From Calditrichaceae bacterium (GTDB lineage Bacteria > Calditrichota > Calditrichia > Calditrichales > JBFXGD01): a stretch of DNA of 47,270 bases. Within the stretch, counting starts at the first letter, position 1. Each line of letters begins with the position of its first letter. Below, piece after piece: positions 24,001-33,000 of the stretch. The position numbers are program-made. Location: contig JBFXGD010000007.1 of NCBI GenBank assembly GCA_050178385.1, positions 1 through 47,270 of the forward strand, given 5' to 3'.

Positions 24001-27000
24001 AAGATGTCATTTTTCTTGATAAAATAGATGGCTTCCTTGAGTACGACGAGGACTTACGCAGCAGTTTAGTAAAGATAATAAAACAGTATAAGCCGGAAAT
24101 TATTTTTTCATTCGATCCCGCGAATAATGACTTTGACAGCCTTAATCTTTTTCACCGCGACCACCGCACCGCTGCCATTGCAGTCTTTGACGCCTGTTTT
24201 GCCGCTAAAAACAATTTAATGTATCCCGGACCTCAGCATAAAGTTGAGAAGATTTATTTTTTCGCGACAAATAAACCAAATCATTTTGAAGATATTTCTG
24301 ATTTGATTGAATTCAAACTTGAGCTGCTCCGATGCCATAAATCCCAGTTCCCGGATTTTTCAAAAGTCGAAAAGTATCTTAAGGAAAGGGTTTCCGTCAG
24401 TCACGGGTCATACAAATATTGCGAAGCATTTCGTGTTATCGAAGTAAAACAGCTGACATAATGCGTTATTCTGAAAGATTTCCTTCTTTTAATCTGTCGC
24501 GAATCCGCTTAGGATAATTGCTCATTATACTAAATCCCCTGGCCTAAAGTTATGTAAGACGACATTAAAGCGACAAAAGAAATGCCCGATGAGATCATCA
24601 CTGATTTCCCACCGGGCACTTTATAATAATTACACAATTAGTTGGATTTATTTCATCAGTAATCTCATAAAATCCGCCACGTCTTTTTCCTTTTCGATAC
24701 TCATGATGGCATCCACTAACCGGTCACGCTTTGCTTTCCCAACCACCGGTATAACCATGGAATCAAATTTTGAAAGCAGCGTTTTTTCATCCATTGGTTC
24801 ACGGTAATCTCCAAGGGGATAATCAAGTATAATTTTATGTTTTTTACCGTCTTTTGTTTTGATTTCCGCGCTGGCCTGCTTAAGCCCCGGAAAGGTTTTT
24901 TCAAATTCCGGATCAGCAACCACATTAATTTTGGGAAGAAAAGACCGCACTTCCTTATCCATGATTTTTTCTGTTTTAAAGGATGCCGGAGTAACACTGC
25001 CGTCAACGATCGCCGCCGATATACAGTAAGGCAGGCTGTGATCTGCCGTTTCCCTGGTTCTTGGATCATATTTTGTCGGGTCGGCAAGAATATCAGCGGC
25101 TCGGGCTACAGTGCCTATTGTTACTTCATCGATATCATCTTTGGAAATGTTTTGTTCCTTCATTATTTTTATTACGGCTGATAGCGGTGTATGGGTCAGC
25201 GCTTCGGTAGGGAACGCTTTCATTGAGCATTTATTGATGCGGAAAGTCTCTCCCAACCCGTCAGTAAGGATATTCAAATCGAAACGTCCGCCAAATGTAT
25301 CAGTCAACCCTTCTTTTCCATCGATGACATGCGCGGGGCCTTCATAACCTCTCTTTGCCAGCAGAGCTGAATATAATCCGGCCTGAGTAGCCATCGGATC
25401 AACCGTGTTCTTCATCATCGTTAATTTCCCTGCCGTAACCGCTCCCAATGTGAGATTATGGCTGCCGGAAATCCCGATGGCGTGAACCATCTCATCCACA
25501 GATAAATCAAGTACTTTACCAGAAACCAACGGCGAAGCAAACTGTGTAAGCGTGGCATGGTGCCATTTACGCTCCCTGATACCCGGTATCGCGAATTCAC
25601 ACATCCGCATTTCCCATTCATAGGCAAGGACAATCGCCGTAATCAGATCTTTACCGCTTTTGTGAAGCACTTCCGCGGGCGTCAACGCGGCCGGTATGAT
25701 ATCACTTGGATGTGACGGGTCCTGATCCCAGTAAATATCATTATAATCCAGCGCTCTGATCATCAATGAATTTAAGAGCGCCTGGTTGATCATGGGTAAT
25801 TTTTTATCTGAATTGATGACAGTCGCTTCCGCTTTACCGCCCATTTCATTATAAAAATCGAGCATAATTTCAACATCTTCTGTCTGACTGCCACCATAAG
25901 CGCAACCGATCGAGTCGAGCAGAAACCTTTTTACGTTGGTGACGGTCTCTTCTGTCAGATTTTCATATTTCAGTTCTTTTGTAAATTCAGCAAGTTTATA
26001 AGTGATATTTTGCATGTTTCCTCCGCCGCAAAACAGGGCGGGGTAAACGAAAGCTTACCCCGCAGTTATTAATTTTTGTCAATATTTAAATGATGTAAAG
26101 GTTCCGGATAGAATCAGAGATTCCGCGCAACTTCCTCAGCGACTTCGAGCGAGGTATTCTTCCCGTCCATATCGTAGGTTTTTACTTTCCCTGCTTTAAT
26201 TACTTTTGCGATGGCGGCTTCAAGCCTTTCAGCATCTTTCTTTTCTCCCAGCCAGTCCAACATCAGTTTTGCGGTCAGGAACATGGCCATTGGATTCACC
26301 TTATACTGCCCGGCGTATTTTGGTGCCGAGCCGTGAGTCGGTTCAAACACCGCGTAATCATCACCGATGTTTCCGCTGGAGGCGAATCCTAAACCGCCGA
26401 CCAACTGAGCCGCCAGATCCGAAAGAATGTCACCAAACATGTTTTCTGCAACCAGCACATCATAATCAAAAGGATTTTTCAGCAGCCACATCGTCTGGGC
26501 GTCAATATTGGTTTCCCACATCTGAATATCAGGATATTTTTTTGCCACTTCACGCGCTGTCCGCACCATTAACCCGCCTGTTTCACGCAGAACATTCGGC
26601 TTATCCACAACTGTGACCGATTTCCGACCGTGTTTTTTGGCGTATTCAAATGCCTGAGTGACAATATTATCGCATTTCTGCCGACTCATAATTCTTGTGG
26701 ACATAGCGAGATTATCGAGTCCGTACTGACCGAATTTTTTCATTTTCGGATGATTTTTACTCAAAACGTCAAACACTTCCTGCGGAATCGGATGAAATTC
26801 AACTCCACCGTACATTCCTTCCGTGTTTTCACGGAAAATTACCAGATCAATGCCCTCTTTGAAGTTCAGAGGATTGCCCGGATACGCTTTACAAGGCCTT
26901 AGATTTGTATGCAGGTTAAATTCCTGACGTAACCGAACGATCGGTGAGAAATACACAAATCCTTTATCTGCCAGCTCTGCGTCAAGTTCCTTTGCCGCTT

Positions 27001-30000: not shown

Positions 30001-33000
30001 AAAATAAGATTCAACTCAACTGCTTCTTGAAAGCCTAAAATATGCAGGAGTCATTATGAAGTTAGCTAAAAATGTATTGGGTCGGGAAGTACCTGTCGAA
30101 ATAAACGGCAATAAAGCCATCCCGTTCCAAGGTATCGGTAAACATAAACCATCCGGGAGAAAAGCGGGGCCTCCTATTCCTTCCGGCGCGGATTATAAAA
30201 CAAAAGTATTGAAAAATATTGACGAAGCCCTGGACCGGTTGGAATTAAAAAACGGGATGACCATTTCTTTTCATCATCATCTGCGTAACGGCGATGTTAT
30301 CGTCAATCTGATTGTGGGTAAATTATCGGAGCGTGGTCTGAAAGACCTGGTTCTGGCGCCATCGGCTCTTTTCCCGGTCCATGAACCAATTGTTGATCAT
30401 ATAAAAAAGGGAACCGTTTCCCATGTACTCGGATCGATGAATGGCCCTATCGGAAAACTCTGCACTGTGGGTGGAATGAAAAAAACCGCCATTCTCAGAT
30501 CACACGGCGGGCGCTATCGCGCCATTCAGGACGGCGATCTTCATATCGACGCGGCATTCATCGCCGCTCCGACAGCGGATACTCACGGAAACGCCAACGG
30601 GGTGCACGGTCCATCCGCCTGCGGTCCGCTCGGCTTTGCCCTGGCCGATTCCCTTTATGCCGATAAGGTCGTGGTCATCAGCGATAATATCGTGCCCTTT
30701 CCCACCTATCCCTGGTCTATTGAAGGCGGGAATGTGGATTATGTAGTCCCTATAGCTAAATTAGGTGATCCATCGAAAATTGTTTCCGGTACCACACAGA
30801 TAGCCACCGAACCCGATCGTCTTAAAATCGCCTCCATGGCCGCTCAGCTTGTCCGTGATACCGGTCTTATATATGAACCTGAGTTTTCATTTCAGGCCGG
30901 CGCGGGAGGAATGTCTCTGGCATTTATTCAATATATCGCCGATTATATGCGCGAAAAGAACATTGTCGCCGACTTTGTCCGCGGCGGGTCCACGCAGCTT
31001 CTTGTCAACATGCTTAAAGAGGGAATGACCCGGTTTATTCTTGACGGTCAATCGTTTGACCTCGCCGGTGTTGAATCTCTCCGGAATAATCCGAATCATA
31101 TCGAAACCAATCCGTTTGTTTCATATAACTATCATACCAAGGGATGTTTTGCTCCCAGGGTAAAAGCATCCGTGCTCGGGGGGACAGAGGTAGACCTCGA
31201 TTTTAACGTAAATGTCAACACGCACTCTGACGGATGGCTGCTGCACGGGATCGGCGGATTCCAGGATGCAGCCGATGCTTATATGACGATTATAACAGCA
31301 CCATTGTACCGCAAAACGAATCCGATAGTTGTCGAACGGGTTCACACCATTACCGCCCCCGGTGAAACGATTGACGCCATCGTAACTGACCACGGCATTG
31401 CCATCAATCCCAACCGCAAGGATCTGCTTGACCGTCTCAAAAAGAGTGATCTGCCGATCGTCTCCATCGAAGAATTACATGAGAAAGCCATTGGATTCAC
31501 AGGCAAGCAGGAAAAACCAAAGACAAAAGACAACATAGTCGCGGTGATAGAATGGCGGGATGGAACGGTCATTGATTCAGTTCGGGAACTGGATATTTAG
31601 TTTTAACTTCTCATCAAAACGGAGCATGAGACTTTGGTATAAAACAAAAGAGGCCATCTAACAGACGGCCTCTTTTTATAAAAACAGATTATTTCTTTTT
31701 GCCTGCTATTGAATTTTTCTTTTTTGCTTTACGCTCGAGATAATCCGGGTGAGATGTCAGATTGTGCGACATGAACACATGCTGAATTTCATTCCCGAAT
31801 CCCTGCTGTTTAAAGAATTGAATCGCCGCCTTATTGCTTTTTTCCGTATCGACAATCATCATCCTGGCCCCCTCTTCGATAAACTTATCCCGAAGCCGAC
31901 TGGTTAACCGTTTTCCTATACCCTGTCTTTTTATATCCGGTTCAACACCCAACCAGAGTATCCACCCGTAACTCCATGCGCTGTGCCTTTTTGTAATAAA
32001 AGTCCCCAAAACAAAACCGGCGAAAACATCATCCAATTCGGCGACAAGACAGAAATCGCCATCTGAGGCAAATAATCCTACAATCTCATATTCATCCCAG
32101 GTGCGGTGAAGGTTCGGCCATTTTTCGGCTGTAAACAATTTTTCACCAAGAGCAAATACTGCCGGAAGGTCCTCCAGCTCCATTTCCCGAATATATACAT
32201 TTCCTGCCAGACCTTTTTTCTTACCTGTTTTCGTAGCCATAAATTTCCCATGATAGTTCCACATCAACAATTAAGTCAATCAACTTTGAATATTACTCAA
32301 AAATAACGCCTGATCAAGACAAATCTTTCCCAAATTTTGATTCTTTTCTAAAGAATACCCAAAAATATTCATTTTTTCGAAATATAATTTGATTGACAAA
32401 AGTTTGGCAGATTTAAGAACCAAAACAATTAATTTTGTTGATTTTTGAGGAGTATTTTATGCGATTTAATATATATCCTGTTTTATTGTTAATATTTTTA
32501 TTTGTCAGTACCGTGCTTGCCGATCGTAGAAGTTACGTTTGGACCTATCAGTACATGACCCTTCCGGCGGGATTAACTGAACTGGAGTTTTACCAGACCA
32601 CACGCCTGAGCGATACCGATCTGTGGGAATACAGAATCGAAATAGAACACGGTTTCACCGACCGGTGGGATTTTTCCGTTTATCAGATTTTTAGTCAGCT
32701 TGAAGATGAAGCTTTAAAATGGGATGCTGTGCAGTTTCGCACCCGGTACAGAATCGGGGAAGTGGATCAGTATTTCATGGATCCCCTTCTTTATCTGGAA
32801 TACCGTCGAAAAACTGACTTTAGCGAAGCCAACAAACTGGAAGCTAAACTCATTCTCTCGAAAACAATCTCAAAATTTAATCTCGCAATAAATCCCGTCT
32901 ATGAATATTTCTTCGCTCCGGGTGAGGAACATGAGGCCGGACTCGATACCGGACTTTCCTGGGAATTCAGTCCTAAATTTGTGGCCGGATTGGAATCAAC

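Follow-up and report, generated by a model that had tools for sequence, protein, structure and literature searches.

By sequence, the locus described here joins the transferase half of citrate lyase (CitF) with an unrelated citrate-synthase-like lyase (CCL), and no carrier protein was found. The two very probably form a functional, ACP-free pairing which acts on free CoA thioesters. Citrate is probably less likely as substrate than a compound of the homocitrate type, and homocitrate itself appears a rather probable choice. If true, the pair would be the last step of a previously undescribed route for the breakdown of the lysine product 2-oxoadipate; neither a CitF-CCL pair nor a homocitrate-splitting route was found in a literature search. 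From the preliminary description, which had proposed a two-enzyme cleavage of citrate on free CoA, the ACP-free architecture is retained, whereas citrate gives way to a likelier homocitrate-type substrate.

The window, i.e., the whole stretch of DNA which was analysed, comprises 47,270 nucleotides from a Calditrichaceae bacterium (Calditrichota; JBFXGD01; assembly GCA_050178385.1, contig JBFXGD010000007.1, positions 1 to 47,270, forward strand). The genome bin is 94% complete, which bears on the absences reported for it. The locus contains the following genes:

24648..26015, minus strand: MmgE/PrpD-family protein (prpD), 455 aa; PF03972, PF19305
26114..27232, minus strand: beta-decarboxylating dehydrogenase (Iso_dh family), 372 aa; PF00180, no NCBIfam model over cut-off
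27376..27912, minus strand: stand-alone YhaM-like HD-domain protein, 178 aa; PF01966
28212..29024, minus strand: ccl, citrate-synthase-fold citryl-CoA-lyase family; NF004866 282 (cut-off 245), NF004869 273.5 (cut-off 212)
29058..29825, minus strand: trmB, TrmB-type regulator, 255 aa; PF01978, first gene of the minus-strand operon
30056..31600, plus strand: citF, CitF-family CoA-transferase, 514 aa; TIGR01584 532.6 (cut-off 501.45), PDB 2hj0 and 1xr4 at E about 1e-123

An ORF check together with the Pfam matches confirmed all six reading frames in the order first described, with citF divergent, across trmB, from ccl and the genes for the HD protein, dehydrogenase and PrpD-like protein; 230 bp separate the regulator gene from the citF start. 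The assignments of CitF and of CCL as a 257-aa member of the citryl-CoA lyase family (counted from the ATG at 28985) hold with the scores listed. The best PDB match of CCL was the citryl-CoA lyase 6hxp (E 1e-62), with aligned DHG, HGGA, GHR, DPR, NVDG and RVPG motifs; the catalytic His/Asp/Arg set of citrate synthase is present, identical to that of 6hxp and invariant in an alignment with 29 relatives, and the score for TIGR01800 was 95 against a cut-off of 421. The PrpD-like protein reached 59–90 bits with prpD equivalog models, far below their cut-offs of 458–950; its PDB matches were IDS epimerase, cis-aconitate decarboxylase and PrpD.

The reported absence of CitE and CitD from this genome was borne out, since no match was over cut-off for PF03328, and none was obtained for PF06857 at E <= 1. 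Neither CitG (PF01874) nor CitC (TIGR00124) was over cut-off in the genome, and a tblastn search with a single CitX query gave no match. Two weak PF03328 matches proved to be PTS enzyme I (PtsI) and pyruvate kinase, and a weak CitC match falls within a cytidylyltransferase-like gene. The search for CitD, formerly limited to this genome, was extended to 41 Calditrichia genomes and yielded CitD in only one, G003; CitG was found in none of the 41. In each of three relatives (G025, G029 and G040), the one of two HpcH-family genes that was scanned is by score an HpaI/GarL aldolase, not CitE.

CitF is present in 27 of the 41 Calditrichia genomes, the present one included, and co-occurs with CCL in 24 (19/28 among genomes at least 90% complete). 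As had been noted, it is missing from one whole family of ten genomes, f2 (0/10). The conservation of the arrangement was likewise corroborated: the complete order from citF to prpD was found in 19 of 30 Calditrichia loci anchored on the HD gene, most others stopping at a contig edge, and citF was not adjacent in a few (L238, L218, L239; G025). The sole complete CitF carrier without CCL is G003, whose operon (trmB, dehydrogenase, HD, LeuCD, citDE, citF) shares its regulator, its dehydrogenase and its HD gene with the present locus and includes a CitD-CitE fusion; CCL occupies the place of this fusion. G039 lacks CitF; there, trmB is accompanied by ccl and by a beta/alpha pair resembling succinyl-CoA synthetase. 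The trmB homologues lead the equivalent operons of both G003 (47%) and G039 (42%). A CitE-family match was obtained in 38 of 42 scored CitF genomes; of the four CitE-less ones, three carry CCL at 44–51%, and these three belong to other phyla. Two archaeal operons read leuC-leuD-HD-citF-ccl-leuC2-leuD2-dehydrogenase (G049) and citF-ccl-HD-citF2 (G055). In the CitF tree, the bacterial CCL-partnered CitFs group in one clade, which lies inside the CitFs accompanied by CitD-CitE fusions. A common clade for every CCL-partnered CitF was rejected (p-AU 2e-8); thus, the pairing arose at least twice. These fusions carry Lys/Arg where the canonical Ser belongs, in genomes without CitG, so that the role of the ACP was apparently lost before CCL arrived.

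With citrate lyase (CitDEF with CitC/CitX/CitG; EC 4.1.3.6, citrate (pro-3S)-lyase) the window shares CitF and the logic of a transferase followed by a lyase, with regeneration of the acetyl thioester in a cycle without ATP. It differs by the lack of recognisable CitE, CitD, CitG and CitC, by a lyase of the citrate-synthase fold, and by its HICDH-like, PrpD-like and HD companion genes. Free-CoA transferase and lyase pairs exist in itaconate and citramalate breakdown, where the known ones consist of class III transferases and TIM-barrel lyases. A two-gene citrate lyase, CitF plus CitD-CitE, is described for Ignavibacterium album (PMC3362086). The CCL family and its catalytic motifs are common to the CCS/CCL system of Hydrogenobacter thermophilus and to ATP-citrate lyase; however, activation by a CoA-transferase, not by an ATP-dependent ligase, is predicted for the window. 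The ligase subunits of G039, which has a ligase plus CCL version under the same regulator, match only the ordinary sucC/sucD of the present genome, which pass succinate-CoA ligase cut-offs, and a Si-citrate synthase is present as well.

A homocitrate-type substrate is favoured because of a HICDH-like motif in the dehydrogenase, a fungal-type homoaconitase, the CitF signature, a housekeeping branch for citrate and the distribution of PrpD; a citrate analogue, named earlier as the main risk to the proposal, now appears to be the more probable case. Citrate synthase (Si type), aconitase and NADP-IDH pass cut-offs elsewhere in the genome, which has two IDH-type genes. In the operon dehydrogenase, YFSPIVRLR aligns with GYSSPIVALR of the Schizosaccharomyces pombe HICDH 3ty3 (a short fragment, E 0.48), and the Asn of the SxNV motif of IDH is missing. 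Its whole-protein scores fail to tell IDH from HICDH, the best PDB match being the IDH 6ltf (5e-66), followed by Thermus HICDH (3e-64); the best NCBIfam model was AksF2, with a score below cut-off. An orthologue occurs in 37 of 41 genomes, and four further cleavage modules are associated with this dehydrogenase. In f2 it is 82–87% identical to that of the window, within one starred tree clade, and its neighbours are an HMG-CoA-lyase-family enzyme (7/7 loci) and a class III CoA-transferase (5/7); a putative carbonic anhydrase also belongs to the f2 operon.

Homoaconitase (G000:C11:1233-3197; TIGR00139 876, cut-off 529.9) is of the fungal type; 38 of 41 genomes have a match over cut-off, against 0/14 controls. 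It is unlinked to the locus in Calditrichia and also present in f2; in L244 and L245 the gene lies amid those of the module, and in Planctomycetota it is part of the operon. In six LysW/Hcs-like loci examined, a dehydrogenase gene and an aconitase-family gene were both absent, and lysine prototrophs must therefore take those steps from elsewhere. PrpD was not found in any of eight f2 genomes tested, which have HMG-CoA-lyase- or isocitrate-lyase-type enzymes; since these are one family, the contrast represents few independent events. According to PMC5690661, the acetate-derived arm of the Si product is closed to aconitases, and the elimination performed by PrpD is syn.

In place of the Arg of citrate-type CitF (S-x-L-R motif), the CitF of the window has N129/H390/H397, as do 26 of 26 CCL-labelled CitF rows. 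Arg is present in both citrate-lyase alpha chains of the PDB, 2hj0 and 1xr4, and in nine rows whose genes neighbour a citrate transporter or true aconitase/IDH; two archaeal CitFs adjoining true IDH and aconitase (L078, L092) show a related T/E/H pattern. The signature tracks phylogeny and is a candidate determinant of substrate choice only. CitF-like subunits act also on non-citrate substrates, as in clostridial citramalate lyase of the methylaspartate pathway, which, unlike the window, keeps CitD, CitE, CitC, CitX and CitG and has an S-type signature.

The chances appear about even that CitF and CCL end a reversed upper alpha-aminoadipate pathway, in which 2-oxoadipate and CO2 would yield homoisocitrate, (S)-homocitrate and finally 2-oxoglutarate and acetate; given homocitrate as substrate, a catabolic direction is likely. 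In favour of this direction count the missing homocitrate-synthase-family match of 10 of the 24 genomes with CitF and CCL, the lysine-related genes given below and the putative carbonic anhydrase of f2. Lysine would be deaminated to 2-oxoadipate, and the genes from lysine to 2-aminoadipate are present. The operon dehydrogenase, as an NADP-type homoisocitrate dehydrogenase, would carboxylate 2-oxoadipate reductively with NADPH. The unlinked homoaconitase could then form cis-homoaconitate, which the PrpD-like protein, to judge from stereochemistry, may hydrate as a syn-hydro-lyase to (S)-homocitrate, the isomer that a Si-face lyase could use. CitF would transfer CoA to it from acetyl-CoA or another free acyl-CoA, and CCL, as (S)-homocitryl-CoA lyase, would release acetyl-CoA and 2-oxoglutarate. 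Such an ACP-free, ATP-free two-step C-C cleavage would give, with acetyl-CoA as donor, 2-oxoadipate + CO2 + NADPH -> 2-oxoglutarate + acetate. With the upper alpha-aminoadipate pathway (homocitrate synthase, Lys4/LysF, HICDH) the genome has in common the homoaconitase equivalog and the SPIVxLR motif of yeast HICDH; it differs by the CoA-transferase and lyase instead of the synthase (no PF00682 or TIGR02146 match), the NADP-type motif and the predicted reverse direction. The (S)-isomer rather than (R)-homocitrate is predicted, hence a PrpD in the module; the Candida albicans homoaconitase accepts (R)-homocitrate (PMC6268379).

For the entry from lysine, lysine 6-transaminase and P6C dehydrogenase were over cut-off in the present genome, as were asd, dapA and dapB; LysX was not, and the LysW/LysX lower pathway is present in relatives such as G007. 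P6C dehydrogenase was detected in four of four other Calditrichia tested and not found in the archaeon G049 (an incomplete genome). Lysine 6-transaminase occurs in only 3 of 41 genomes; a lysine-6-dehydrogenase-like gene, checked in the present genome and in L035, would offer another entry. Consistent linkage to the citF-ccl locus was seen for none of the lysine-catabolic genes. The genome also encodes a glutaryl-CoA dehydrogenase (match to 3sf6, E 3e-138), and the classical exit from 2-oxoadipate therefore exists.

An ACP-free citrate lyase, splitting citrate to oxaloacetate and acetate, would serve citrate fermentation or glutamate breakdown via isocitrate; the dehydrogenase would then be a second IDH, and PrpD would take the place of aconitase. 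We regard this as unlikely, even though CitF and CCL pass citrate-named models, the CCL motifs match 6hxp, the dehydrogenase as a whole has an IDH as its best match, L078, L092 and L108 have related CitFs next to true aconitase and IDH, and the cleavage of citryl-CoA lies near equilibrium (-2.1 kJ/mol; PMC13147460, Table 1). The genome already has its own enzymes of citrate metabolism, PrpD is unneeded for symmetric citrate, a citrate transporter was absent among the window neighbours by model and Pfam searches, the SxNV Asn and the citrate-type Arg are missing, and in f2, where the dehydrogenase is the same, an HMG-CoA-lyase-type enzyme takes the place of the pair. Whatever the physiological substrate, a promiscuous activity on citrate is likely. 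Somewhat less probable still is the same chemistry on another asymmetric substrate, e.g., the shortening by one carbon of a branched or a longer dicarboxylic 2-oxoacid, or a route of the methylcitrate type. The CitF family does change substrate, since relatives at 45–50% lie in clostridial clusters with glutamate mutase, methylaspartase and fumarase-like genes, presumably a citramalate-lyase setting; LeuCD-like hydro-lyases accompany the module in G003, G049, L241 and Synergistota, lysine genes are unlinked, and PrpD homologues are best known for acting on 2-methylcitrate. The 2-methylcitrate cycle (PrpC, PrpD, AcnB, PrpB) shares with the window a PrpD-family hydro-lyase, an aconitase-family enzyme and an asymmetric Si-face citrate analogue; however, the window's PrpD-like protein falls below the equivalog cut-offs, and a decarboxylating dehydrogenase replaces the isocitrate-lyase-type step. 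The homoaconitase equivalog and the HICDH-like motif indicate the C6/C7 series, and 2-methylisocitrate, as a tertiary alcohol, cannot be oxidised by this dehydrogenase family. A PrpC-like gene and a PrpB-like one (the latter by an isocitrate-lyase-family query), as well as methylisocitrate-lyase-like and class I fumarase-like genes, were not found in the genome with the queries used, and those for glutamate mutase, methylaspartase and mesaconase gave no tblastn match.

An anabolic use is improbable; here CCL and CitF would stand in for homocitrate synthase and join acetyl-CoA and 2-oxoglutarate to (S)-homocitrate, from which 2-oxoadipate, lysine or a different product would be made. The steps up to the dehydrogenase are all near-reversible, and 10 of the 24 genomes with CitF and CCL, including the present one, lack a homocitrate-synthase-family match and retain homoaconitase and dehydrogenase. 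This reading is opposed by the DAP-pathway genes without LysX, by the Hcs-like gene which genomes with LysW loci have of their own (several retain the module too), by the little pull toward synthesis without thioester hydrolysis, and by the carbonic-anhydrase-like gene of f2, which fits a supply of CO2. That CitF and CCL are not partners, CitF acting alone or with an unrecognised carrier or lyase and adjacency being inherited synteny, is very improbable. As divergent genes the two are not co-transcribed, G025, G041 and G042 have them unlinked, related genomes are not independent and the bin is incomplete; yet the replacements in G003 and G039 are position for position, citF and ccl are co-directional in the two archaeal operons, CCL and CitE are nearly mutually exclusive in the 42 genomes, and the pairing has more than one origin.

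The HD gene accompanies CitF, CCL and PrpD modules and was not found in three of three f2 genomes tested. In the alignment the HD motif is altered to AD; the AlphaFold model of the protein has a pLDDT of 92.7, and its sole Foldseek match under 1e-3 is YhaM (9h3f).

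All six open reading frames of the preliminary description are present in the window at the positions assigned to them:

30056–31600, plus strand: citF, over the TIGR01584 equivalog cut-off
28212–29024, minus strand: ccl, over two citryl-CoA lyase models; the ATG at 28985 gives 257 aa
minus strand: trmB, HD, Iso_dh-family (dehydrogenase) and MmgE/PrpD-family genes, by profile matches

The closest solved structure to CCL is 6hxp, a citryl-CoA lyase of the H. thermophilus type (E 1e-62), and the catalytic motifs all align. CitE and CitD had been described as absent from the genome, and neither was over cut-off in the 94%-complete assembly; the same was found there for CitG and CitC. 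Weak matches to CitE and CitC were PTS enzyme I, pyruvate kinase and a cytidylyltransferase-like gene. CitD, described earlier as absent for this genome only, was found in 1 of 41 Calditrichia genomes; CitG was found in none of the 41. CitF was present in 27 of these genomes, CCL in 26 and both in 24, and among the 28 genomes of at least 90% completeness both were present in 19. The complete six-gene order occurred in 19 of 30 HD-anchored loci; citF was not linked to the module in a few loci, e.g., in the relative G025.

Two exceptions to the co-occurrence carry other modules. The complete genome G003 has no CCL, and its operon consists of trmB (47%), dehydrogenase (57%), HD (40%), a fused LeuCD, a CitD-CitE fusion and citF (57%), in this order. 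Genome G039 has no CitF; its operon contains trmB, succinyl-CoA-synthetase-like beta and alpha subunits (below the SucCD cut-offs) and ccl (57%), and is an ATP-dependent version under the same regulator. A convergent NhaC-type transporter gene lies alongside (L184:7249-14064). The remaining three Calditrichia exceptions for CitF or CCL are genomes of 64–83% completeness.

For a wider comparison, CitE-family proteins, CCL and CitG were searched in the genomes behind 80 CitF loci (43 submitted and 42 scored, G079 being unscored). A CitE-family match was obtained in 38 of the 42. Three of the four CitE-less genomes, which were Delongbacteria, Acidobacteriota and Thermoplasmatota bins, had CCL at 44–51%; the fourth, a 1.0-Mb bin, had neither. 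Among the 38 CitE-positive genomes a CCL-sized match was found only in G076 and in G049, where it adjoins a second citF in the single run leuC-leuD-HD-citF-ccl-leuC2-leuD2-dehydrogenase. The thermoplasmatal genome G055 has ccl and HD between two citF paralogues (citF-ccl-HD-citF2, L111:9917-14414), directly upstream of RNA polymerase genes. In the archaeal CCL of G049 (L359:8225-9271, 349 aa), about 90 residues are inserted behind the N-terminal segment. In a quick CitF tree of 90 rows, the 24 bacterial CCL-partnered rows formed one clade (SH-aLRT 99), which was nested in CitFs with CitD-CitE fusions (SH-aLRT 97). A single clade of the bacterial and the three archaeal CCL-partnered CitFs was rejected (p-AU 2e-8, 36 rows, with long branches present and the constrained group chosen after the first tree); therefore, the pairing of CitF and CCL probably arose at least twice. 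The deep branches of a CCL tree were without resolution, and this tree was left out of the evidence.

Thus the locus is real and conserved, and an ACP-free pairing of CitF and CCL appears very likely. A function of the pair as a substitute for citrate synthase was ruled out, since Si-citrate synthase is present in the genome itself and in most relatives. In a complex prediction, which is not counted as evidence, a CCL dimer with CitF scored 0.29 against a mark of 0.32, the controls not having been folded.

The carrier had probably fallen out of use before its loss. Isolated CitF (EC 2.8.3.10) and CitE (EC 4.1.3.34) accept free CoA thioesters. CitG was found in 10 and not found in 32 of the 42 CitF-bearing genomes, and it was found in none with a CitD-CitE fusion. 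All 12 displayed fusions carry Lys or Arg two residues ahead of the conserved Asp, where clostridial CitDs have Ser. With a free-CoA mode in place, CCL could easily have taken over from CitD-CitE later. In four loci from Spirochaetota and Syntrophaceae bins (L062, L067, L074, L077), ABC transporter and ADP-ribosylglycohydrolase-family genes precede the citDE fusion and citF.

Of the free-CoA citrate cleavage proposed earlier, the ACP-free pairing is supported by the co-occurrence and the swap in G003. Citrate is a less likely physiological substrate than (S)-homocitrate, since the genome's own citrate enzymes, the dehydrogenase motif, the homoaconitase and the CitF signature all point elsewhere. 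Si-citrate synthase, aconitase and NADP-IDH are over cut-offs in the genome, together with a second IDH-type gene with an SxNV motif. The operon dehydrogenase, present in 37 of 41 Calditrichia genomes (two matches contain stops), is without the Asn typical of IDHs. Its motif GAITS...SPIVRLR is kept across the clade, and SPIVRLR aligns with GYSSPIVALR of the S. pombe homoisocitrate dehydrogenase (HICDH) 3ty3. Its HGSAPKY, which we take as an NADP mark by the rule from E. coli IDH, suggests an NADP-type enzyme. The best whole-protein PDB match was an IDH, narrowly above Thermus HICDH, which counts against the HICDH reading.

A fungal-type homoaconitase on contig C11 scored 876 against a cut-off of 529.9, and the family was over cut-off in 38 of 41 Calditrichia genomes versus none of 14 controls. 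Two planctomycetotal loci (L244, L245) have it among HD, PrpD and dehydrogenase genes; homoaconitase and dehydrogenase were both absent from the six lysW/hcs-like loci examined. The C11 gene, which is divergent from a mevalonate-pathway operon, was also considered as LeuCD, and the gene on C122 as LeuB; by profile score the former is a homoaconitase, and the latter is an IDH-type protein. Homoaconitase, aconitase and citrate synthase of this genome (L249, L252 and L253; contigs C11, C10 and C43) all pass models based on fungal or mitochondrial proteins. The main text of the C. abyssi genome paper leaves the homoaconitase and dehydrogenase steps unassigned, and its TCA table may assign them (PMC5317091).

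At CitF position 129, the two citrate-lyase chains of the PDB have Arg, as do 9 rows whose neighbours are citrate transporters or a true aconitase/IDH; all 23 rows labelled as the clostridial glutamate-mutase cluster have Ser. The CCL-labelled rows (26 of 26) and the fusion rows (14 of 14) share the signature N129/H390/H397. Exceptions to these types were L078 and L092 (T/E/H beside true IDH) and L061. This signature follows descent and is a candidate substrate mark. A literature search yielded no paper on Arg85 of Thermus HICDH or on glutamate breakdown via citrate.

Family f2 of the Calditrichia has neither CitF nor CCL, and the dehydrogenase is kept at 82–87% identity in seven of its genomes (G005, G007, G009, G011, G013, G017, G019). 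The dehydrogenases of f2 and the window fell into one clade with support 99/96, in a tree for which L245 was taken to be of the CitDE type. In the f2 operon (L310–L316) the dehydrogenase gene is followed by that of a putative carbonic anhydrase; an HMG-CoA-lyase-family protein is present in 7/7 loci and a class III CoA-transferase in 5/7. In G002 (L317:5497-9616) a 62% dehydrogenase precedes an isocitrate-lyase/PrpB-family gene and leuCD, possibly a CoA-free cleavage variant. With the f2 and G002 operons, five cleavage modules stand beside one dehydrogenase family: CitF with CCL; CitF with CitDE; ligase with CCL; class III transferase with an HMG-CoA-lyase type; and an isocitrate-lyase type.

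PrpD goes with the first three modules (window, G003, G039), with a second LeuCD pair instead in G049 and Synergistota, and was not found in any of eight f2 genomes tested. CitE and citrate-synthase-fold enzymes act on the Si face, and HMG-CoA-lyase-fold enzymes on the opposite face. A Si-face lyase would need (S)-homocitrate and therefore PrpD; the HMG-CoA-lyase fold would need no PrpD. Symmetric citrate would need PrpD with neither fold. The PrpD contrast would thus be explained by lyase stereochemistry, f2 representing few independent events. According to the accessible text of the respective papers, aconitases eliminate in anti fashion, on the arm that stems from oxaloacetate, and PrpD provides a syn elimination towards the arm that comes from the acyl group (PMC5690661); C. 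albicans homoaconitase takes (R)-homocitrate (PMC6268379). PrpD as a substitute for the Fe-S LeuCD of G003 was rejected: G003 has a 72% PrpD elsewhere, and locus L241 has both.

Lysine breakdown would then run through the upper alpha-aminoadipate pathway in reverse, with CO2 fixation; a PrpD-family enzyme would make the unnatural-looking (S)-homocitrate, which the carrier-free pair of CitF and a citrate-synthase-fold lyase would split. Judged from gene content and motifs, the chances of this catabolic homocitrate reading are about even. The genome has no member of the homocitrate synthase family and no LysX, and it has asd, dapA and dapB; a homocitrate-synthase-family match at E <= 1e-40 was missing in 10 of 24 CitF+CCL genomes, eight of these at least 90% complete. 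Lysine 6-transaminase and P6C dehydrogenase are over cut-off in the genome, which also has a gene resembling PH1688, presumably a lysine 6-dehydrogenase; no gene was recognised as a 2-aminoadipate transaminase. P6C dehydrogenase was present in four of five other genomes tested; lysine 6-transaminase failed as a general marker (3/41 genomes). Glutaryl-CoA dehydrogenase is present, so the module would offer a second way out; its NADPH consumption would plausibly favour it at a shortage of electron sinks. Directly after citF, five loci (L035:11590-12729, L039, L045, L048, L192) have a saccharopine/lysine-dehydrogenase-like or class I aminotransferase gene, which might connect the locus with lysine or 2-aminoadipate. 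The joint proposition, somewhat less probable than not, is that Calditrichia, like many other peptide degraders among the bacteria and archaea, break down lysine by CO2-fixing reversal of the upper alpha-aminoadipate route, via PrpD-made (S)-homocitrate and splitting of the CitF + CCL type, one orthologous dehydrogenase serving five interchangeable modules and stereochemistry setting the need for PrpD.

The module resembles citrate lyase CitDEF in its functions and is a member neither of that system nor of CCS/CCL. Neither a CitF + CCL pair nor homocitrate cleavage was found in the literature covered, classical work on citrate and citramalate lyases lying largely outside it. Two surveys of the reverse TCA cycle, in their accessible parts, give ACL, CCS/CCL, citrate synthase or regular citrate lyase as the only means of citrate cleavage, and use CCL and citrate-lyase genes as markers of that cycle (PMC9802188, PMC13147460); therefore CCL in such genomes should not be taken as autotrophy. 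If the proposition is true, two small soluble enzymes would split a tricarboxylate without ATP or carrier, and sediment peptide degraders would possess an undescribed CO2- and NADPH-consuming exit for 2-oxoadipate. An unassigned PrpD subfamily, the fungal-type homoaconitase of bacteria and a clade of NADP-type, HICDH-like enzymes would obtain functions, and many "citrate lyase alpha subunit" and "citryl-CoA lyase" annotations in such genomes would not be citrate-acting in vivo. Because the modules are swapped within a single class, four purified proteins would suffice for a direct test of the stereochemical prediction.

The HD gene accompanies the modules of CitF, CCL and PrpD, and three f2 genomes gave no match to it. 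A PDB sequence search with its product gave no match; the model (pLDDT 92.7) matches YhaM (E 6e-6), and the only Atlas matches were unnamed clusters of HD and PrpD proteins. The HD motif is AD in the copies of >=49% identity, from Calditrichota, Fidelibacterota and Planctomycetota; in copies further away it reads HD. As a guess, the protein may be a hydrolase clearing or recycling a CoA derivative.

A promoter and terminator scan gave 16 and 10 sites versus 14.1 and 7.7 in shuffles, i.e., no excess, and the trmB-citF gap showed no striking operator repeat. The 299-bp ccl-HD gap contains low-complexity repeats of 7/14 nt (window 27953-28220), and strong hairpins lie at 26038-26063 (dehydrogenase/prpD gap) and 31646-31676 (between the citF and GNAT genes, which converge). 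Single genomes have split or stop-containing copies of ccl (L214/L236), prpD (L227) or the dehydrogenase gene (G023), which are assembly errors or pseudogenes. By its translations, the minus strand of window 16740-23382 has a cluster of multihaem cytochrome-like ORFs rich in CxxCH motifs, together with one porin-like and one rhodanese-like ORF.
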